DNA of 64,000 nt from Escherichia coli (lineage in GTDB: Bacteria > Pseudomonadota > Gammaproteobacteria > Enterobacterales > Enterobacteriaceae). Both the position numbers and the translations under genes were made by a program. The notes under the pieces were generated by a model. It was not told the origin of the DNA, ran no database searches, and saw only the letters and a program-made list of their open reading frames with translations. Below, one piece after another: positions 37,010 to 46,716 of this stretch (position 1 is the first letter of the stretch; each line of letters begins with the position of its first letter). Location of the stretch: NCBI RefSeq assembly GCF_003018255.1, contig NZ_CP027440.1; one strand, written 5' to 3'.

Positions 37010-39643
37010 ATGAAAGCGGTATCTCGCGTTCACATCACCCCGCATATGCACTGGGATCGGGAGTGGTATTTCACCACCGAAGAGTCACGCATTCTGCTGG
37101 TCAATAATATGGAAGAGATCCTGTGCCGACTGGAACAGGACAACGAATACAAATATTACGTACTCGACGGGCAAACGGCGATCCTCGAAGATTATTTCGC
37201 GGTGAAACCGGAAAACAAAGACCGTGTGAAGAAACAGGTAGAAGCAGGCAAGTTGATTATCGGCCCCTGGTATACCCAGACCGATACCACGATTGTTTCT
37301 GCGGAATCCATCGTCCGTAATCTGATGTACGGAATGCGTGACTGCCTCACGTTTGGCGAGCCGATGAAAATAGGTTATTTACCAGATTCCTTTGGCATGT
37401 CCGGGCAACTGCCGCATATTTACAATGGATTTGGCATTACCCGCACCATGTTCTGGCGCGGATGTTCTGAGCGCCACGGTACTGATAAAACCGAGTTTTT
37501 GTGGCAAAGCAGTGACGGTAGCGAAGTGACGGCGCAGGTGCTGCCGCTGGGCTACGCCATCGGTAAGTACTTACCTGCCGACGAAGACGGATTACGCAAA
37601 CGCCTCGACAGTTATTTTGATGTGCTGGAAAAAGCGTCAGTAACCAAAGAGATTTTGCTGCCGAATGGTCATGACCAGATGCCATTGCAGCAAAATATCT
37701 TCGAAGTGATGGATAAGCTACGTGAGATCTACCCTCAACGTAAGTTTGTGATGAGCCGCTTTGAAGAGGTATTTGAGAAGATCGAAGCGCAGCGAGATAA
37801 TCTGGCAACCCTGAAAGGGGAATTTATTGATGGCAAATATATGCGCGTGCATCGCACCATCGGTTCTACGCGTATGGATATCAAAATTGCCCACGCGCGT
37901 ATTGAAAATAAGATTGTTAATCTGCTGGAACCGCTGGCAACGCTGGCCTGGACGTTGGGTTTTGAATACCACCACGGCTTGCTGGAGAAATTGTGGAAAG
38001 AAATTTTAAAAAACCACGCCCATGACAGCATCGGCTGCTGCTGTAGTGACAAAGTTCATCGCGAGATTGTCGCCCGTTTCGAACTGGCAGAAGACATGGC
38101 GGATAATCTGCTGCGTTTCTATATGCGTAAAATTGCCGATAACATGCCACAGAGTGATGCCGACAAACTTGTGCTGTTTAACCTGATGCCCTGGCCGCGG
38201 GAAGAAGTGATCAACACCACTGTGCGGCTGCGCGCCAGCCAGTTTAATTTGCGGGACGATCGCGGTCAGCCTGTACCGTATTTTATTCGCCATGCCCGTG
38301 AGATCGATCCTGGCCTAATCGATCGGCAAATCGTTCATTACGGTAATTATGATCCCTTTATGGAGTTTGATATTCAGATCAACCAGATTGTCCCTTCTAT
38401 GGGCTATCGCACGCTTTATATCGAAGCGAATCAGCCTGGCAACGTGATTGCGGCAAAAAGTGACGCTGAAGGGATACTGGAAAATGCTTTCTGGCAAATT
38501 GCGCTCAATGAGGATGGAACGCTACAACTGGTAGATAAAGACAGCGGTGTGCGCTATGACCGGGTGTTGCAAATTGAAGAAAGCTCTGATGATGGTGATG
38601 AATATGACTATTCACCCGCAAAAGAAGAGTGGGTAATTACTTCGGCGAACGCGAAACCGCAATGCGAGATTACTCATGAGGCCTGGCAGAGTAGGGCTGT
38701 TATCCGCTATGACATGGCGGTGCCGCGTAATCTGCATGAACGCAGCGCAAGACAATCCACTGGCAGAGTAGGGGTGGAGTTGGCTGTCACTCTGAGTGAT
38801 AACAGCAGGCGCATTGATGTGGATATCAACCTTGATAACCAGGCTGACGATCATCGCCTTCGCGTCCTGGTCCCTACACCTTTTAACACCGACAGTGTTC
38901 TGGCCGATACCCAGTTTGGTTCGCTAACGCGCCCCGTGAACGACAGTGCAATGAACAACTGGCAGCAAGAAGGCTGGAAAGAAGCGCCGGTTCCGGTATG
39001 GAATATGCTCAACTATGCTGCCTTACAGGAAGGGCGTAACGGTCTGGCTGTCTTTAGCGAAGGGCTACGTGAATATGAAGTCATCGGTGAAGAGAAGAAA
39101 ACCTTTGCCATTACGTTGCTGCGTGGCGTGGGCTTACTGGGGAAAGAAGATCTGCTTTTAAGGCCTGGACGTCCTTCAGGAATAAAAATGCCGGTGCCCG
39201 ATTCACAATTACGTGGCTCCTTTAGCTGCCGTCTGAGCTTATTTAGTTATACAGGTACGCCTTCGACCGCCGGTGTAGCCCAGCAGGCGCGCGCATGGCT
39301 GACGCCAGTACAGTGTTACAACAAAATCCCGTGGGATGCGATGAAGTTAAATAAAGCCGGATTCAATGTGCCGGAAAGCTATAGCTTGCTGAAAATGCCC
39401 CCTGTGGGATGCCTGATTAGCGCTCTTAAAAAAGCGGAAGACCGGCAAGAAGTGGTATTGCGACTGTTTAATCCGGCAGAATCGACAACCTGTGAGGCAA
39501 CTGTCGCGTTCAGTCGTGAGGTGATTTCATGTACGCAAACGATGATGGATGAAAGCATCAGCACAGCGGAAAGAGATAATTTAAAGGAACTGGGGGCATT
39601 TTTACCGGGGCAGTCACGGACATTTAGCTACCGCCTTGGCTGA
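37010..39643 (+). CDS. mngB: Alpha-mannosidase, glycoside hydrolase family 38 (877 aa)
   Basis: [38 protein letters not shown]... GH38 signature. Confidence 0.93.
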
Positions 39644-39681
39644 TTATTGCGCTAAAAGTGTATCTGAGGGGGGCAATAATT

Positions 39682-39712
39682 TCAGGCCATCTTCGGATGG
39701 CCTGAGATTGTT
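39682..39712 (+). terminator. Probable terminator after mngB
   Basis: Hairpin TCAGGCCATC-TTCG-GATGGCCTGA followed by a T-rich stretch. Confidence 0.55.
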
Positions 39713-39787
39713 GATAAACAAGTTTGTTAGCTTACGCAGATACCAGATTTGACCTGCGTGAGAACCGCAGGCCATTTATCATTTCAG

Positions 39788-41185
39788 TTACCCCTTAAAC
39801 GTTAACCACGGTCGAAATCTGACCGCTGGCTGAATTAATCCGGCTTCTTGTTGGGCTTCGATAACCGGACCAATATCTTTATAAGCCGCTGGCGCTTCTT
39901 CAAAACGTCGTTCTTCGCGCAATGTGACGCATTGCCACGGCAGCGTTGACTCTTCAGTCGCGCGTGAGCGCATGGCCTGCCGACGCTGGCTGCGTCCTGC
40001 TCCGTGACTGCATGACCACAGCCACTCCGGGTTGCCGCAACCTACCGCAAGCCACGAATAATCGCCCATTGAACCGGGGATTAACGCCAGATTGCCCACT
40101 CGTGCCGGTGTTGCGCCTTTGCGATGAATATTCATTTCATGCTCGCGAAGGATGATGTTATGTGGCACATCCACCACCAGATGCGAATTGTCCTGATGAA
40201 AGAGATTGGCAAGACATACGCGCACCATTTCGGCAATTGTGACGCGATTTAACCATGCGTAACGCGCCGCCATTCCTATCGCTTGTAGATATTCCTCCGC
40301 CAGTCCGCCTGCCAGACCATATAACCCGCTTTGTGGATGTTTATGTCCGGTGGGCCATTCAGCACGGGCGCGATCCATCCAGCGTCTTCCGACGTAAAAG
40401 CCAACATCTCGCGATCCACTGTGGATCATCACCACAATATCGCCTGTTTTCAGCCCTTGTTGCCAGGCTACATGGCGATCAACCACGCTATCAACGACCT
40501 GAAGTTCAATAAAATGATTACCTGAACCCGGCGTACCCAGACAAGGATCGCGGAGTAATGCGCGGTCCGTTGCCTGCAGGGCGGGTGGGGCATAACGCGA
40601 ATGACTGTTATGCTCGTTAAGCCCAATGCAGCGGTCAATCTCTTGTACCATTCGGGGGATATTCGTGCGTATCCAGAGACCTTCTGATGGCAAGGTCGAC
40701 ACGCAATCTGCCGGTCCGCCATCAAAAAGCGCGGTGAACGCCTGTGCGGATAACGGAACATCGCGCTCATTTTGCAGTAGCACTTGCGTTAACCGCTGAG
40801 CGATGACGTCTTTATGCGCTTCGGCTTGCTCAAGTGTTAATCCGGTCGTCAGCAGCCGCATGCCACAAGAAATATCGGTGCCGATGGCGGCGGGAATGAC
40901 TAAATCCGGCGTTGAGGCCACCACCGCGCCAACGGGGACGCCATTGCCGGGATGAAAATCTGGCGTCGCGCACGTCTGGCGCACATAACCTGGGTGGTCT
41001 GGTAGCTTCACTTCTGCAAAATCAAGCAGTTGTGTTACTGCTTTTTCTTCCAGCGGCAGTTCGTCCGGCAGCAGTACGCGGGCACTGGCACCTGATGGAC
41101 GAGATAATGAAACAATATTGTTGGCGCGGGAAAGTTGGATCCCTTTGCGCAGAAAGGCTTTATCAAGCCTTGAAAGATGATGCAT
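39788..41185 (-). CDS. RtcB-family RNA 3-prime-phosphate ligase paralog (465 aa), orphan
   Basis: Conserved RtcB motifs: TPDFHPGNG, IPAAIGTDISCGMRLL, GTPGSGNHFIELQ, MIHSGSRDVG, IPGSMG, CSHGAGR, AYKDIGPVIEAQ; N-terminus about 30 aa longer than canonical RtcB; start codon uncertain. Confidence 0.85.
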   Translation of the reverse strand: MHHLSRLDKAFLRKGIQLSRANNIVSLSRPSGASARVLLPDELPLEEKAVTQLLDFAEVKLPDHPGYVRQTCATPDFHPGNGVPVGAVVASTPDLVIPAAIGTDISCGMRLLTTGLTLEQAEAHKDVIAQRLTQVLLQNERDVPLSAQAFTALFDGGPADCVSTLPSEGLWIRTNIPRMVQEIDRCIGLNEHNSHSRYAPPALQATDRALLRDPCLGTPGSGNHFIELQVVDSVVDRHVAWQQGLKTGDIVVMIHSGSRDVGFYVGRRWMDRARAEWPTGHKHPQSGLYGLAGGLAEEYLQAIGMAARYAWLNRVTIAEMVRVCLANLFHQDNSHLVVDVPHNIILREHEMNIHRKGATPARVGNLALIPGSMGDYSWLAVGCGNPEWLWSCSHGAGRSQRRQAMRSRATEESTLPWQCVTLREERRFEEAPAAYKDIGPVIEAQQEAGLIQPAVRFRPWLTFKG

Positions 41186-41490
41186 AACGCTGTCCTGAAA
41201 TATAGACGTTAAACAACCCCCTGTATGGCGAGGGTAATTTTGTCTTTCCGGTCAGCAGCCAGCAAAAGGGAAAGAAAACGCGCGTAGTGTATGTGGCGAT
41301 AGCAAGTGTTACAAGTGGTAAATCTGGCTTATTGTTAAAGAGGAATTATCTTTTGTGAAGTCTTTTAAGGCCATGACTCATTCAATTTAACCGGACATAG
41401 ATAATATATAACATAGGGTATCTAAATTTATCATTGTATACTTGTCATAATTCAAGTTGCATGTGCTGCATCGATGTTCGCTCACCCAGG

Positions 41491-42060
41491 TCACTTACTT
41501 ATGTAAGCTTCTGGAAATTCATTATTTGTTCCCTTCCTGCAACTTGACTTATTTAGAGTATATTCATGTATACACATCGAGATTTCAGCCAGCAGACGCG
41601 CATCTGGCGTGCCGTGGCGGATCTGTAGCGGTTTTTGCAGAGTTTCGGTGAGGCGACGGCAAGCTGCAACGCCGTGGTTAACGACCGGTAAACCGTTCAG
41701 TTTAGAGGTTCCGGCTTCGATGGATTTTTTAATCCCTACAGCCGCTTCTTCGTACCGATTCAGACGGGTATATGCATCGATGGTGCTCGGCAGCAGATCG
41801 CACTCTTCTTGTAGTGTTTTCAGTAGTTCGATGTGTTCGTCCATCAGCGCCACACCTGCGCGCGGTTGGCTAAGGGTTTTACCTTCCTTGTCTGCTTTCA
41901 ACAGCGCAAGAGAGAAGCGTTTATGCTCAGGAATGGTTTGTTGGTATTTAACGCCATCTTCAAAGTTTTCAACATCCTTGCCGGTTTCCCAGGTTTTCAG
42001 TACCTGTTGCCGCTCGGTCATGAATTCGTCATGGGTTAATTTCTTATTTCGAAGTTCCAT
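41491..42060 (-). pseudogene. glmE: Glutamate mutase E (epsilon) subunit, truncated: 189 codons versus about 480 in intact homologs
   Basis: [33 protein letters not shown]...[20 protein letters not shown]...[15 protein letters not shown]...[13 protein letters not shown] resembles the GlmE N-terminus; similarity ends near codon 165, then 24 unrelated codons and stop. Confidence 0.75.
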
Positions 42061-42078
42061 TGATTGCAGCCTTAATTG

Positions 42079-43467
42079 TTATAGGGTTAAGCATTGAATA
42101 CTGGTGCGCGCGGCGGCCAGCGGATCGACTCTGGCGACGTTTGCCAGCAGTGGTAATAGCCCCCGGGAATCGCGGTAATATTCAAATTCGGTCGGTAAGA
42201 GAATGCGTTTACCGTCGTCGTTTAACTCGCGGTATTTCAACCAGTGATGCATATCGAACTGACTGGCACGCGAGAGCCATCCGCCGGATCCGACGACTTT
42301 ACGCACGGTTGTCAGGTCACGTCCCATCTGTAAATCGACATTGCCGACGCAGGTGCAGACCTCTTTTTTGGTGCCCGCATGTCTTTCGGTGGCATAACCC
42401 ACACACAGTCCGGCCAGGACGGTATCGAAATATTTTTCTTCTGCATTCGCGGGTAAGTAGTCGGGATGAGCGACTAGATGACGGAGGTAATGATAAAAAG
42501 CGTCCAGCTGTGCGGGTTGCTGAGCAAAATTCACATTGACTAACTCTTTCGCACTTTCACCAACCACCATTGCCGAGACGCGCATTCCCAGATCTCCTTC
42601 CACCGTCCGTTTTACGAAGGGTTCCGGTACGCCATGTAAAACAGTGTCGGGCGAGAGCGTGTTGGCACTGGCGGAATAGACATCGGTGGTTGCGCCACCC
42701 ATGTCGATCAGCATGAACTCTTTCCAGCTGTGATCGACATTACTGATTGCCTTAACCAGTTCAAAGACTGTCCACGGTGTCGGCATTGGTTCTTCGCCTG
42801 TTTTATCAACAACGACATCCAGCCCTTTCCCTTTAACGATGCGTTTAAGGAATATGTCGCAGATAGCCTGGCGTGCAGCTAAAGGGTTCGGATGGTCAAG
42901 ATCGGGCAGAACGTTGTCGACGATGGTCAGGTCTTTATGCCCGAGGATCTCCTGCACCTCGTCCTGAATATCCCGGTTTCCGGCATAAATAATGGCGCAG
43001 TCGAGTTTGGATTCTGCCAACACACGGGCGTTATTCAGTCCGTAGCTTTCTTCTCCGCCATCGGTGCCGCCGGTGAACAAGAGAATATCGGGCTGCGTTT
43101 CTTCCAGTGCCTGGATATCACGGCGGTTCAGCTTGTAGGCGTAAGATTGCGCAATTTTAGCACCCGCAGAGTGAGCGGTTACTTTCGCGGTTTCCAGGGT
43201 GATAGAAGGCACCAATCCCATTGCGGCAACCGCCAGCCCACCTTTGGCAGAGGAGGAATACTTCAATGCAACCTCACCACTGTTTAACAGGGGGAGGGCA
43301 TCATCTACGTTTAACACCTGGTCCAGGCTGGAGAAAAACCCCTTCGCCAGATGATGGGTGGTGGTTGGGGTCAGTACGTGGTTAACCAACGTTAACGCGT
43401 CCCCCTCCCGGGCGAAGAGGGCTGCTTTGGTCCACGTCGATCCAATATCGACAGAGACGATTTGCAT
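42079..43467 (-). CDS. glmL: Glutamate mutase accessory protein GlmL/MutL-like (462 aa)
   Basis: [18 protein letters not shown]... actin/Hsp70-like ATPase fold; translationally coupled to glmS (TGATG overlap); placed between glmS and glmE as in clostridial operons. Confidence 0.75.
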   Translation of the reverse strand: MQIVSVDIGSTWTKAALFAREGDALTLVNHVLTPTTTHHLAKGFFSSLDQVLNVDDALPLLNSGEVALKYSSSAKGGLAVAAMGLVPSITLETAKVTAHSAGAKIAQSYAYKLNRRDIQALEETQPDILLFTGGTDGGEESYGLNNARVLAESKLDCAIIYAGNRDIQDEVQEILGHKDLTIVDNVLPDLDHPNPLAARQAICDIFLKRIVKGKGLDVVVDKTGEEPMPTPWTVFELVKAISNVDHSWKEFMLIDMGGATTDVYSASANTLSPDTVLHGVPEPFVKRTVEGDLGMRVSAMVVGESAKELVNVNFAQQPAQLDAFYHYLRHLVAHPDYLPANAEEKYFDTVLAGLCVGYATERHAGTKKEVCTCVGNVDLQMGRDLTTVRKVVGSGGWLSRASQFDMHHWLKYRELNDDGKRILLPTEFEYYRDSRGLLPLLANVARVDPLAAARTSIQCLTL

Positions 43468-43916
43468 CAGATTGCCTCTTCAAGAATACGAGTATCAACG
43501 TCATGACGTTGGTTGATATCGTGGGCCATCAGCTGACAAACATCTTCTAAGTCATGACTTGGGGCAAAGACGCGATCAAATCCCATCTCTTTGAATTTGG
43601 TTTCCACGTCAGCGAAGTCATGTTTTCCGACCACCAGGTTACCGCCCACATAGAGCAGGATGTCCCCCAGTCCACGCTCGATGCAGCGTTCGCGCATGCC
43701 CAGACAGTCGATATCGCCATGCCCATAGATAGAGGAGACGACAATCGCGTCAGCACCAGTTTCAATGGCAGCATCAATATATTCGTCCTGGCTGACCATT
43801 ACGCCCAGATTAATAACTCTGAAGTCATGGTTGCTAAAAACGCGGTCCAGAACTTTATTGCCTACTGCATGGCAGTCCGCGCCAATAACGCCAATCACAA
43901 GTGTTGCTTTCTTCAT
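43467..43916 (-). CDS. glmS: Glutamate mutase S (sigma) subunit, B12-binding (149 aa)
   Basis: [24 protein letters not shown]... with the DxHxxG cobalamin-binding motif; AGGA RBS 7 nt upstream of this ATG (the listed ORF extends 21 codons further upstream). Confidence 0.8.
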
Positions 43917-44463
43917 GGGTAATCCTTTGTAAGACAGAGAGTAAAATAAGTTACACACGTCGTATTTATGGCCGCTCATAACGGCACAGGTTTAATATCA
44001 CAGGAGTGTCTTTATCTGACCGTAATGTTGCAATTGATCTATTTTCAAAATGTCTTTCGGGAAATGATTGTTTAAAGTGTGTTTTCAAATTCTCATGTTA
44101 ATTCAGTGTGTTATGTCAACTAATGTCATGAATGTTAAATTTTTAAAATTAACTTGATTTGATGTATTGAGATAATTGTGATCAACTTCTAATTTGCATT
44201 TTAGTGATATGGGGTTAGCCATGAGTAAATGCATTTCATAAAAGTTAAGTCGAATTTCACTGCAATTCATCTCTGCTTAATGTAAAAATAATGTTGAAAA
44301 TAACAAATAATTAATGATTCATGCGAATTATGACCTTTGTTAGCTCTTTTGATTTTTCGTAAAAAAGAAAAGTACATGAAGGTGCTACCAGTACGAGAAA
44401 CGTTAATCAAAAGTTTTATTACGTCTGGCAATAACGCAGGCCATTTTTCGCGACAGGAGGGAT

Positions 44464-44886
44464 TTAATCAGTATAATCCTCATACAATAGGTCAGGATTT
44501 ACAGAACCGTTAACGGGGTTTTGGTGTTGAAATTTAGAAATGGTGGAGTCAATCAATGAAGACAGTATCGAAAAAATGACTGTGTCAGAATTAATTTCAA
44601 TTAATCCTTCTCGTTGTTGACCAAAAAAGATATTTATCTTGATTTCATTTGTACTACGGAAATCAATATGTAGTAATTTTTGATCGCTGAGATTTTCTGT
44701 TTCATAAATGTTTTTGGCGATAGTCGGATGTATTGATGCCAGACATCTGCTCAGATAAGCCAGATCCTTTAGGGAACACCCCGCTGAGTAGAGGATGTCA
44801 GAGAATTTTTGTGTGTCAACTGTTGGCTCTGAAGCGTATGTTGCATTGACTGGAAGGGTGTTGAAGGAGATTTGAGATGGGATCAT
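44464..44886 (-). CDS. Hypothetical protein (140 aa), small and acidic, low GC
   Basis: Intact ORF MIPSQISFNTLPVNATYASEPTVDTQKF...; no recognisable motif; sits in an AT-rich segment of the island. Confidence 0.5.
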   Translation of the reverse strand: MIPSQISFNTLPVNATYASEPTVDTQKFSDILYSAGCSLKDLAYLSRCLASIHPTIAKNIYETENLSDQKLLHIDFRSTNEIKINIFFGQQREGLIEINSDTVIFSILSSLIDSTISKFQHQNPVNGSVNPDLLYEDYTD

Positions 44887-44966
44887 TATTTAAATCTTTC
44901 CGTGAGTAATAAAAATTAATCCCCGGGCATTGTTTAGTAATATTTGCCACAGGGGATATATAAAAA

Positions 44967-45911
44967 TTAAAGTATTTGATTGGCATCGGTTAACTGATCA
45001 ATAACCAGTGCCAGATTGGTAAACATTTTGAAAAAGCGATACTGGCTCGGAATATCTCTTTCAAAGACGAAACATTCAATGTCATTGTTTGAAAAATAAA
45101 GGACTAGTGATGCTGATTCGTCAGGAAAAATATGGAAATATATCTGGTTACCAGAAGGAGGATAGTCCAGAAGAAGGGTATCTTTGCCCGTCACATACCT
45201 GTTGTGGTCGTGGATGCTGCGCTCACACTTCATCAGAGGTGTCATGATACTCATGTATTCATCTGATGTTAATATATTAAAATCACCATCCATTTTAAAG
45301 AAACGATAAAGTAACAGTACATCCTCTTGCGTAACCGGTTCGTTTGTTTTTAGAGGGAAATAAGTGGGAACCAGAAGATGAGGTTCTAATCTATTTTGTT
45401 GAGCGCTATAACTAAATTTGAACATAAATTCCGGATCGCTCATCAATTGAGCGACATAATTATGCCTGGCTTCAAAAATTTTAACTTTTATCAGGTTAAA
45501 TAAGTCTGTTTCGTCATCCTGTATTAAAAGACATTGGCCATAGCAGCCAGGCTTTTTTTCATTATAAGCAGAAACGGTTATTCTGTCAGGAGTGTCAACG
45601 TTATATCCAAAAGCCAGATAGTGACCTTCCTCATCGAGATTTGTTTCCAGGTTATTTAAATTCATCACATGAAGTGTTTGCAATGCTGATTCAATGAGCT
45701 GTTGACTCTCTGAGGTAAATGTTTCGCGCTGCGTTGTATAAAGTGTATCGATTCCAACGACTATCCGATGTGGGTCAAGGATGGCGGCAATCATCTTTAT
45801 TACCTGCACAGTCATGGGTGATGTCATTGATTCTTTATCTGTTTTTAGAGGATCATTAGATGGCCAACCTGAGAAGCGATTGACAGCAGAACTGATAATA
45901 TCAGGACTCAT
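44967..45911 (-). CDS. Hypothetical protein (314 aa), low GC
   Basis: Intact ORF MSPDIISSAVNRFSGWPSNDPLKTDKESM...; GAGG RBS 8 nt upstream of ATG; no signal peptide or TM helix evident; no family recognised. Confidence 0.6.
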   Translation of the reverse strand: MSPDIISSAVNRFSGWPSNDPLKTDKESMTSPMTVQVIKMIAAILDPHRIVVGIDTLYTTQRETFTSESQQLIESALQTLHVMNLNNLETNLDEEGHYLAFGYNVDTPDRITVSAYNEKKPGCYGQCLLIQDDETDLFNLIKVKIFEARHNYVAQLMSDPEFMFKFSYSAQQNRLEPHLLVPTYFPLKTNEPVTQEDVLLLYRFFKMDGDFNILTSDEYMSIMTPLMKCERSIHDHNRYVTGKDTLLLDYPPSGNQIYFHIFPDESASLVLYFSNNDIECFVFERDIPSQYRFFKMFTNLALVIDQLTDANQIL

Positions 45912-46365
45912 AGCAGCAACCTCATTGTAATCAAGCGAGGCGCTGAGCGTACTCGGCTATAGAAAAACTAACTTGCAAAAATCGCTCATTTTTCATTTAT
46001 CAGGCGAAAGTGGTCTCTGTTCACTCAGAAACAATCACTCCCGCTAAGTCATACCTGTTTCATCGATACATTTAAGTGATTATTACTAATGAAACAATAA
46101 CATAATGGGCTTACGGCCGGTGCTCATAAACGCAACAATCAATTAACTTTGATAAAAATATGTTATGTAAAATAGCAACAAATTGGCTAATCTAATCAAT
46201 TGGTATTATAAAAAGTGGATAAGGCGGTTCTGTTAAATAAAACACTGGTTTTTTATCTATACCTTTTCATTGTAATAATTGTGTTGCATAAATATTTCAC
46301 AATAAATTAACAATAAAATCACCAATGATCTATGGTTTATACATAATTAACATATTTGGTTGATT

Positions 46366-46379
46366 TTGATATAAATCAA
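46366..46379. promoter_or_regulatory. FNR/CRP-type palindromic site in the cydA upstream region
   Basis: Perfect TTGAT-ATAA-ATCAA (TTGAT N4 ATCAA) about 340 bp upstream of cydA in an AT-rich leader. Confidence 0.55.
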
Positions 46380-46716
46380 TTTTTAATTCTTGAAAAAAAT
46401 CTGCAAAACACGATAAATTGTCGTAGATCAAATTGGTGAGATCGTGACAATTTCGCTATAAATTGATCACTGTCGAAAAATGCAAATTTGCTCAATAAAA
46501 ACCTGTTTATTGTAAGGATTTTGCGGCGTAATATAATTACGGGATCAATTTGGTTTATTCATTAACACATTTGTAACTTTTTTATCATTGTCTTTTCCTC
46601 TTTTGATGAAATGGCAACGATAGAGGCGAGCAAATAATTTTGTATTGGGGCATGCGTGTGACCCTTTCTAACGGGGTTCACTCTCGGAGTCTTCATGCGA
46701 TGAGCAAGGAGTCATG

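Follow-up and report, generated by a model that had tools for sequence, protein, structure and literature searches.

A stand-alone RtcB-family ligase gene of Escherichia coli and the conserved, structured leader RNA that precedes it

RtcB ligases are common among bacteria, but their physiological substrates and signals are known for two arrangements only, the rtcBA operon governed by RtcR and sigma54 and the RtcB2 linked to PrfH, the latter known as a ribosome-repair module in Escherichia coli ATCC 25922 (PMC9304027, PMC9223846). Here we describe a third, stand-alone arrangement, which other proteobacteria share with about 5% of the complete E. coli genomes, on the example of an RtcB gene situated in a stretch of 64,000 nucleotides of E. 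coli DNA (contig NZ_CP027440.1 of assembly GCF_003018255.1), which covers the region from sucD to cydA; this whole stretch is called the window in the following, and all positions refer to it. As a protein, it adds one more member to an established family; what is new is an orphan RtcB with a dedicated leader RNA, which would take the place of RtcR and sigma54. An initial annotation of the window, made from its letters alone, had recognised the gene as an orphan RtcB paralog, had suggested that it could serve RNA repair following ribotoxin or phage attack, and had overlooked the conserved promoter and the structured 5' leader travelling with the whole subfamily. No paper dealing with this RtcB subfamily or its leader was found in our literature search.

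The RtcB gene and its subfamily

39788..41185, minus strand: intact gene for an RtcB-family 3'-phosphate/5'-OH ligase of 465 amino acids (open reading frame, Pfam PF01139, alignment, AlphaFold2, ratio of nonsynonymous to synonymous substitution rates, dN/dS)

This gene encodes an RtcB-family ligase with a complete set of catalytic residues. The open reading frame and the family assignment given in the initial annotation are borne out by RefSeq, which places an 'RtcB family protein' (WP_096122540.1) at identical coordinates, and by the Pfam RtcB model PF01139, whose positions 7-426 of 426 are matched by residues 63-465 (E 6.9e-95). All five motifs named there as evidence of catalytic competence (DISCGMR, SGNHF, HSGSR, IPGSMG and SHGAGR) are found in the translation, and alignment to the RtcB of Pyrococcus horikoshii places D104/C107 on D95/C98, N223/H224/E227 on N202/H203/E206, H255 on H234 and H342 on H329; P370-G374 (PGSMG) and the C-terminal K464 align to residues of that enzyme as well. 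SHGAGR, with H394, aligns with the archaeal CHGAGR motif bearing the GMP-accepting histidine, which we take to be H404 in archaeal numbering. The set thus comprises the metal ligands (D104, C107, H224, H255, H342), the GMP-accepting H394 and the GTP-contacting N223, E227, PGSMG and K464, and the active-site residues are invariant across 20 members of the subfamily (alignment A1). The His and Cys residues are therefore all in place, and GTP/Mn-dependent ligation is the predicted activity. The AlphaFold2 model of the 465 residues (predicted local distance difference test score 83.8, predicted template modelling score 0.88) superposes over its full length on the RtcB-GMP/Mn structure 4dwq (template modelling score, TM, 0.79; Foldseek E 4e-29), and all 16 significant Foldseek matches are RtcB structures. 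A dN/dS ratio of 0.08-0.25, both within Escherichia and against an 86%-identical ortholog, indicates that the gene is maintained by purifying selection.

The N-terminal extension ascribed to the protein exists insofar as about 23 residues reach beyond the N-terminus of E. coli RtcB1; it is, however, a normal feature of the family and not special to this protein, since these residues align with the N-terminus of the archaeal and Thermus enzymes, and most of the extra length over E. coli RtcB1 is due to internal insertions. The segment is conserved from residue 1 throughout the subfamily, and together with the archaeal and Thermus alignment this supports the annotated ATG as the start codon.

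Homologs of equal length sharing 55-67% identity occur throughout the beta- and gammaproteobacteria, among them Pseudomonas aeruginosa, Burkholderia, Comamonas, Pectobacterium, Xenorhabdus and symbionts of the bee gut; in a scan of one genome per species, carriers of this subfamily of about 465 amino acids amounted to 288 of 100,044 species. In a neighbour-joining tree of 120 representatives (100 bootstraps) the subfamily is monophyletic in 98 and the RtcB1-type proteins in 96 replicates, while a group made up of the subfamily and 18 distant representatives (mostly 39-46% identical, and metagenomic where checked) is split from all other RtcBs in 82. The window protein stays below both cut-offs for PrfH-type RtcB (TIGR03073, 171.8 bits against 271.8; NF007153, 208.7 against 407), whereas a true PrfH-type protein taken as positive control (P0249) passes with 395.5 and 429.8. 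Judged by its sequence, the subfamily is therefore distinct from RtcB1 as well as from the PrfH-linked RtcB2, the clade being separate from both in the tree.

In E. coli an intact RtcB of this type is present in 289 of 5,426 complete genomes (about 5%), compared with 4,837 containing rtcR-rtcB-rtcA. Strain JNE23-011, which is 100% identical to the window over the 7.1 kb compared (39600-46700), also possesses rtcR-rtcB-rtcA at 4.174-4.178 Mb of its genome; the gene at 39788-41185 is therefore a true paralog, as had been claimed.

Partners were counted in 92 homologous loci for RtcA and PrfH, and in 80 genome loci from 37 genera for RtcR and for the clustering of neighbouring genes. Neither RtcA (tblastn with E. 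coli RtcA) nor PrfH (tblastn with the K-12 PrfH fragment) was detected in any of the 92 loci, and no more than 8 of the 80 loci, from 2 of the 37 genera, have a full-length RtcR close to the ortholog, the remaining 72 loci (35 genera) being without it. The closest homologs hence do not consistently stand beside rtcA/rtcR or prfH, and in the neighbourhood of the window gene rtcA, rtcR and prfH are absent, in agreement with the initial annotation, which had listed them together with a sigma54 promoter as missing. The exceptional RtcR adjoins the ortholog in Gilliamella (7 loci) and in Enterobacillus tribolii (1 locus) and shows 58-63% identity to its E. coli counterpart; it is paired divergently with an SPFH-like gene. 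Full inspection of two of these loci (G. apicola, L055 75-7398; E. tribolii, L022 6001-13260) showed the divergent genes to be an operon of an SPFH/band-7-like gene, one of RtcB1 type and one unknown, with RtcA absent. The clear sigma54 promoter in Gilliamella (TTGGCACGCTTTTCGCA) belongs to the RtcB1-type gene, and the stand-alone-type RtcB has promoter-like hexamers and a leader of its own. Two independent juxtapositions in 37 genera exceed chance by a rough, uncomputed estimate, and are far from consistent.

No other partner emerged. The neighbours are entirely different in seven annotated contexts of subfamily members, and three contexts of more distant relatives contain no known RtcB partner. 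Clustering of all open reading frames within 6 kb of the gene in the 80 loci, with no partner presupposed, yielded only generic recurrent families, namely LysR, ABC ATPase, SDR and NmrA (the last mainly in Burkholderia). A dedicated LysR regulator was considered and rejected: LysR-type genes are found in 21 of the 80 loci at variable distance, as expected of a very abundant family, and in the hut variant of the E. coli island hutU takes that place. PADLOC gave no defence-system match, and PHROGs returned only generic phage RtcB families. Among single loci, the ortholog of Pseudogulbenkiania directly follows VgrG, an Rhs toxin and a small open reading frame of 99 amino acids (L017 1-5689), and in Ralstonia a protein of 1,338 amino acids with a reverse-transcriptase domain is encoded about 5 kb upstream (L015 1-1218); these two cases hint at neighbourhoods of conflict systems. 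In P. aeruginosa isolates (L006-L008) the ortholog is flanked by the methyltransferase gene that follows nuoN and by a gene for an AI-2E transporter, and going by the PAO1 gene numbering as we take it to be, it may be an accessory insertion there.

Promoter and leader RNA

The elements upstream of the coding sequence, all on the minus strand, are the following:

41286..41314, minus strand: putative sigma70-type promoter, with -35 TTGTAA (41309-41314), a 17-nt spacer and -10 TACACT (41286-41291), proposed from conservation
41186..41280, minus strand: structured 5' leader, an RNA some 95 nt long that abuts the ATG at its 3' end and whose 5' end is deduced from the -10 box
41269..41275, minus strand: alpha, UCUUUCC, pairing with beta as the 5' side of the alternative hairpin P1 (duplex energies)
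41253..41263, minus strand: delta, GCUGGCUGCUG, containing GCUGCUG, forming either the P1 loop or the 5' side of basal helix H0 (conservation)
41243..41249, minus strand: beta, GGAAAGA, pairing with alpha (P1) or with gamma (helix H1) (covariation, duplex energies)
41216..41235, minus strand: apical hairpin P2, a CCCUC/GGGGG stem with an extension (covariation, minimum free energy folding)
41204..41207, minus strand: gamma, GUCU, 3' strand of H1, pairing with beta in the rod (covariation)
41183..41197, minus strand: initiation region, with Shine-Dalgarno AGGA (41193-41196), epsilon CAGC (41189-41192) and ATG (41183-41185), all paired with the delta region in the rod (minimum free energy folding)

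The enteric orthologs share the roughly 110 nt preceding the ATG at 93-100% identity, including one with a coding sequence that has diverged to about 1.06 synonymous substitutions per site (dS). By inspection of all loci, the same architecture recurs in about 40 genera, in the order (5' to 3') of a -10-like hexamer, a pyrimidine stretch (alpha), delta, a purine stretch (beta), the P2 hairpin of variable sequence, gamma, and finally epsilon, which is complementary to delta and abuts the start codon. A GCTGCTG-like motif is found in 86 of 87 loci, 72 of which have it 66-85 nt away from the start codon, and in alignment A3 the GCUGCUG columns are invariant, constituting the sole strong sequence constraint outside the helices.

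The -35 and -10 hexamers are conserved among enteric variants that differ in the DNA further upstream; across genera, a TAnnnT hexamer occurs 15-33 nt upstream of delta in 80 of 86 loci (20 of 86 in a control window), all but one of these distances falling within 15-28 nt. A sigma70-type promoter and a transcription start are therefore predicted upstream of RtcB. The single promoter-like site proposed by a generic scan for promoters and terminators (41359-41331) was set aside, as it is not conserved in the variants with different upstream DNA. No sigma54 site (TGGCAC-N5-TTGCA, up to 3 mismatches) was found on the gene strand in 41186-41572, and an exact search was likewise negative. Promoter, leader and coding sequence are all conserved and all lie within the DNA retained by this strain (387 bp upstream plus the gene).

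A covariance model seeded on 10 betaproteobacterial leaders and iterated once (R2) was run over 1.27 Mb on both strands, and in almost all loci it places a site directly 5' of the RtcB start, accompanied by one weak off-target match and some reverse-strand shadows in the whole 1.27 Mb. The leader of the window is matched at 41183-41281 (minus strand, 17.8 bits). The sole sense-strand match not preceding an RtcB gene lies at 1786-1840 of the window (plus strand, 16.2 bits, E 0.34) and probably is due to chance.

Covariation was computed on an alignment of 45 rows (A8) and compared with shuffles and with controls in which the partner strand was slid. Paired cells amount to 85.2%, against 69.8% in shuffles and 36-49% in slid controls; cells in which both partners have changed number 155, against 52.6 in shuffles (0 of 500 reaching this value); and the covariation score is 0.459, against 0.216 in shuffles and at most 0.11 in slid controls. 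Both sides have changed in 16 of 20 pairs, with compensatory changes across genera at all 7 pairs of H1 (beta:gamma) and all 6 of P2. Because A8 had been fitted to the model, an alignment-free duplex test was added, in which native beta:gamma duplexes (-6.80 kcal/mol) are more stable than cross-species ones (-3.95 kcal/mol), and native alpha:beta duplexes (-8.79 kcal/mol) more stable than their cross-species counterparts (-7.28 kcal/mol), neither difference being reached in 5000 permutations; the alpha:gamma control in this test was not significant. Beta therefore has two co-evolving and mutually exclusive partners. The delta:epsilon duplex is predicted at -7.58 kcal/mol, against -3.19 kcal/mol with a shuffled partner, and shows no covariation because delta is invariant. 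The secondary structure of the leader is thus conserved in evolution, with compensatory changes and two mutually exclusive folds.

Independent minimum free energy folds gave the rod (delta:epsilon, beta:gamma and P2) in nearly every genus folded, with P2 itself likewise predicted in nearly every one. For the E. coli leader, the fold with P1 enforced (-28.5 kcal/mol) lies 0.7 kcal/mol above the rod (-29.2 kcal/mol), the two being nearly iso-energetic. The rod has the Shine-Dalgarno sequence and the AUG paired, the mean unpaired probability of positions -15 to -1 being 0.31. In a comparison of the two folds over 44 leaders, P1 leaves more of the initiation region open, the unpaired fraction of positions -14 to +3 being 0.52 compared with 0.32 in the rod.

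The leader appears to be undescribed. Rfam 15 gave only a chance-level match in 39500-42200 at E<=1, none in eleven loci at gathering thresholds, and only chance-level matches to a Burkholderia leader at E<=10, and the main structured-RNA discovery papers returned by our literature search do not mention rtcB. A metagenome scan with a Burkholderia-type leader pattern retrieved 6 stretches, one being a true leader followed by an RtcB N-terminus and five being copies of one unrelated, coding-like sequence (not checked by translation); as this yield is about that expected by chance, the scan has no bearing on the exclusivity of the leader.

Several variations on the architecture were seen. A longer form, in which the start is separated from GCUGCUG by 100-134 nt and the 3' strand of the basal helix from H1/P2 by one or two additional hairpins, exists in Variovorax, Delftia, Acidovorax, Roseateles, Rubrivivax, Methylibium and Albitalea (for example, L016, L083, L037, L070). 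The 3' strand of P2 resembles a Shine-Dalgarno sequence (for example, L010 7906-8003): CGGAGG is invariant in the group of Burkholderia, Ralstonia, Undibacterium and Chromobacterium, and GGAGG, GGGGG or GGAGA is found elsewhere, with a CCUCC-like 5' strand. Beta is Shine-Dalgarno-like as well, and alpha and gamma resemble anti-Shine-Dalgarno sequences. In Snodgrassella gandavensis the leader lies 4.7 kb upstream of the RtcB body (L082 1226-1323 and 6001-7344) and the protein match begins at residue 18, suggesting an insertion that split the cassette.

The island around the gene

41572..41575, no strand: deletion junction with a 2-bp filler (BLAST break points against strain 7/2, L005 15929 / 24773, and junction sequence)
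41575..42060, minus strand: remnant of glmE, first 162 codons (RefSeq pseudogene)

The neighbours of the RtcB gene are the convergent mngB and a truncated glmE. In E. coli strain 7/2 the order is sucD, mngRAB, RtcB (minus), LysR (plus), cobO, fumD, a symporter gene, DUF4387, an AtuA-like gene and mal, followed by glmE, glmL, glmS, two hypothetical genes and cydA. Relative to that strain the window lacks 8,843 bp, comprising LysR, cobO, fumD, the gltP-like symporter gene, DUF4387, the AtuA-like gene, the methylaspartate ammonia-lyase gene and the 3' two-thirds of glmE; the RtcB cassette was left whole at the sucD-proximal edge of the island. The same arrangement with an intact RtcB is present in five complete genomes at 98.4-100% identity, and is therefore not an assembly artefact. 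The scar noticed in the initial annotation is thus real and glmE is indeed truncated; the proposed fusion of RtcB to glmE, however, did not hold, since the junction (41572|41575) lies 387 bp upstream of the RtcB ATG.

From LysR onward, the island corresponds to the gene cluster for glutamate fermentation (methylaspartate/mesaconate, FumD) that Kronen and Berg (2015, PMC4682846) described for O157:H7: the flanking glmS-glmL-glmE', and in intact strains also LysR-cobO-fumD-gltP-mal, are the same as in that cluster. A term search of the same paper did not reveal RtcB among its cluster descriptions, and the O157-like island variants we examined differ from the window in containing RtcB remnants only. 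A functional tie of RtcB to the catabolic island was rejected, as the neighbours of the subfamily in other taxa are wholly different; elsewhere the subfamily has no relation to glutamate or histidine catabolism. Another island variant in E. coli reads sucD, RtcB, hut genes, LysR and onward. In about 400 of the 5,426 genomes RtcB is reduced to a remnant, 39 bp from its 3' end, and in the one of them that was examined, the O157-like strain 118UI (L013 3001-3160), this remnant is accompanied by a 57-bp RtcB fragment and by fragments of the end of the hut cluster, all between sucD and LysR; the RtcB-less form is therefore derived by deletion from an ancestor bearing RtcB and hut. Other, independent damage to the island includes a different deletion in strain A34, where a partial LysR is joined to a partial AtuA-like gene (L002 5176-6527), and the interruption of fumD by an inserted ISEc31 in an O158:H23 strain (L003 650-3563). 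Two hypothetical genes between glmS and cydA (44464-44886, 140 amino acids, and 44967-45911, 314 amino acids, both on the minus strand) have a GC content of 37-38%, compared with a window mean of 51%, and are present in every island variant examined; neither has a match in PADLOC or PHROGs.

Possible mechanism, other explanations and known systems

Taken together, we consider it reasonably probable that the gene is a functional stand-alone RtcB ligase with its own promoter and a leader gating its translation, the gating itself being probable. The subfamily would then be a horizontally mobile, proteobacterial one-gene cassette consisting of a sigma70-type promoter, a leader of about 95 nt and the coding sequence. 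Transcription from this promoter would yield a leader folding into a translation-blocking rod, in which delta pairs with the bases just 5' of the start codon (in E. coli including it) and beta with gamma, so that the ribosome-binding site is buried. In the alternative fold, beta would pair with alpha to form P1, delta would be exposed in the loop and the initiation region would be freer. Any signal stabilising P1 or breaking the rod could release translation, if the off and on states are assigned correctly, and the ligase thus made would join 2',3'-cyclic-phosphate or 3'-phosphate ends of RNA to 5'-OH ends, presumably resealing tRNA or rRNA cut by endoribonuclease toxins. The near-invariance of GCUGCUG implies a sequence-specific interaction beyond the pairing with epsilon. 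Its complement CAGCAGC presumably occurs in the 530 loop of 16S rRNA.

A more specific, and in our opinion unlikely, version takes the leader itself for the sensor of RNA damage. Here an endoribonuclease toxin would cut the single-stranded GCUGCUG, leaving 2',3'-cyclic-phosphate and 5'-OH ends; the cleavage would destroy the basal helix and break the rod, the ribosome-binding site would become free, and the RtcB produced would reseal its own leader along with the damaged tRNA or rRNA, thereby switching itself off. Such a feedback loop of breaking and resealing would stand in place of the canonical sensing by RtcR and sigma54. Toxins of the MqsR type are specific for GCU, and GCUGCUG offers two such sites; in eukaryotes, IRE1 cuts a CNG/CNGN loop consensus prior to ligation by RtcB, and both GCUGCUG and CAGCAGC fit this consensus.

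Some of our own data weigh against a translational switch in a gene of use to its host. The E. coli leader taken alone is weak, both with R2 (17.8 bits, E 0.12) and in its folding energy (minimum free energy z-score only -1.72); the counts from A8 favour the modelled structure to which the alignment was fitted; and H0 rests on conserved complementarity instead of covariation, as delta never varies. Over 44 leaders the rod is favoured over P1 by a median of 7.1 kcal/mol, and P1 may therefore be only a transient, co-transcriptional fold. The gene is moreover dispensable, being intact in 289 of 5,426 genomes and reduced to a remnant in about 400, and the divergent LysR has been deleted in this strain, though LysR is not a conserved neighbour elsewhere.

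Of the alternatives, we give most room to a leader that is real but works in another mode, be it as an RNA thermometer, as a platform bound by global regulators like CsrA/RsmA, or as a transcription attenuator in which H1 and P2 precede a U-rich tract; this is possible, though we rather doubt it. Gamma and the bases following it are U-rich in many genera, resembling a terminator tail or fourU-type pairing, and both beta and the 3' strand of P2 contain GGA motifs, as does the Shine-Dalgarno region of the E. coli leader (CAGGACAG). A preprint furthermore lists 'a homolog of RtcB', without a locus tag, among new Gac/Rsm targets of P. aeruginosa (PMC11888443), although it could not be established which RtcB of this species is meant. 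The E. coli leader, however, has no U-run after the hairpin, the GGA motifs are located mostly in stems and not in loops, and the strict invariance of GCUGCUG is accounted for by none of these models. It seems improbable, too, that we are dealing with a passenger gene decaying along with a degrading island, intact in appearance and no longer expressed or useful in this lineage. The island has indeed decayed repeatedly (the 8.8-kb deletion, the deletion in A34, ISEc31 in fumD of O158:H23, RtcB cut to short remnants in about 400 genomes), and the AT-rich upstream region (37.7% GC) could be silenced; against this stand the intact frame, a dN/dS of 0.08-0.25, the conserved promoter and leader within the retained 387 bp, and the five genomes at 98.4-100% identity in which RtcB is intact.

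Still less credit is due to the idea that the enzyme acts mainly on DNA ends, by capping or sealing 3'-phosphates, and not on RNA. It draws on E. coli RtcB, which caps and joins DNA 3'-phosphate ends, and on the RtcB paralogs of Myxococcus, which differ in capping (Das et al. 2013; Maughan and Shuman 2015, both as cited in PMC10630183); yet sequence and context offer no pointer to DNA repair, no DNA-repair genes recur nearby, and a regulatory leader acting at the RNA level fits a role in RNA damage at least as well. Finally, the gene might be a displaced copy of the rtcBA/RtcR system or of the RtcB2-PrfH pair whose partners have disappeared in this strain. The presence of RtcR together with an RtcB1-type gene within a few kb in Gilliamella (7 loci) and E. 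tribolii (1 locus) does point to some historical or functional link with the Rtc system. This origin is nevertheless largely refuted and extremely improbable: RtcR is missing from 72 of 80 loci (35 of 37 genera), RtcA and PrfH from all 92, the protein fails both PrfH-type NCBIfam cut-offs, the tree separates the clades with 96-98% bootstrap support, and the Gilliamella ortholog retains its own hexamers and leader, the sigma54 promoter belonging to its RtcB1-type neighbour.

With a leader-gated, stand-alone ligase as the favoured explanation, the leader offers a concrete experimental handle, as whatever flips or cuts it would be the signal to which the ligase answers; the question of this signal thereby becomes directly testable for a stand-alone bacterial RtcB. 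Once the signal were found, it would become apparent how cells detect broken RNA with no sensor protein involved, and the structured regulatory RNAs would gain a further class.

Among enzymes of solved structure, the best matches to the window protein are P. horikoshii PH1602, Thermus TTHA1785 and human RTCB (TM 0.74-0.80), which are of similar length and possess an equivalent N-terminal segment. Their identity in structural alignments is, however, only 22-28%, they form a separate deep branch, and the loci of the window type are without a recurring partner (archease was not searched by name) and without a tRNA-splicing context. RtcB2-PrfH is likewise an accessory second RtcB of some E. coli, thought to counter ribotoxins, but its ligase measures about 360 amino acids instead of about 465, and none of the 92 window-type loci contains prfH. 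E. coli RtcB1 belongs to the same Pfam family, has the same catalytic residues, resides in the same genome and presumably performs the same ligation chemistry; the window protein shares 30% identity with it and is about 57 residues longer, owing to internal insertions and the roughly 23 N-terminal residues. While RtcB1 is encoded in the rtcBA operon under RtcR and sigma54, the window gene lacks rtcA, RtcR and a sigma54 promoter and would instead be controlled by its own sigma70-like promoter and structured leader. With translational riboregulators and the expression platforms of riboswitches, this leader shares a strand having two partners and one fold burying the Shine-Dalgarno sequence and the AUG. 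In contrast to riboswitches, its conserved nucleotides lie mostly in helices and in one invariant heptamer, with no large conserved ligand pocket; its effector may be something other than a small molecule.

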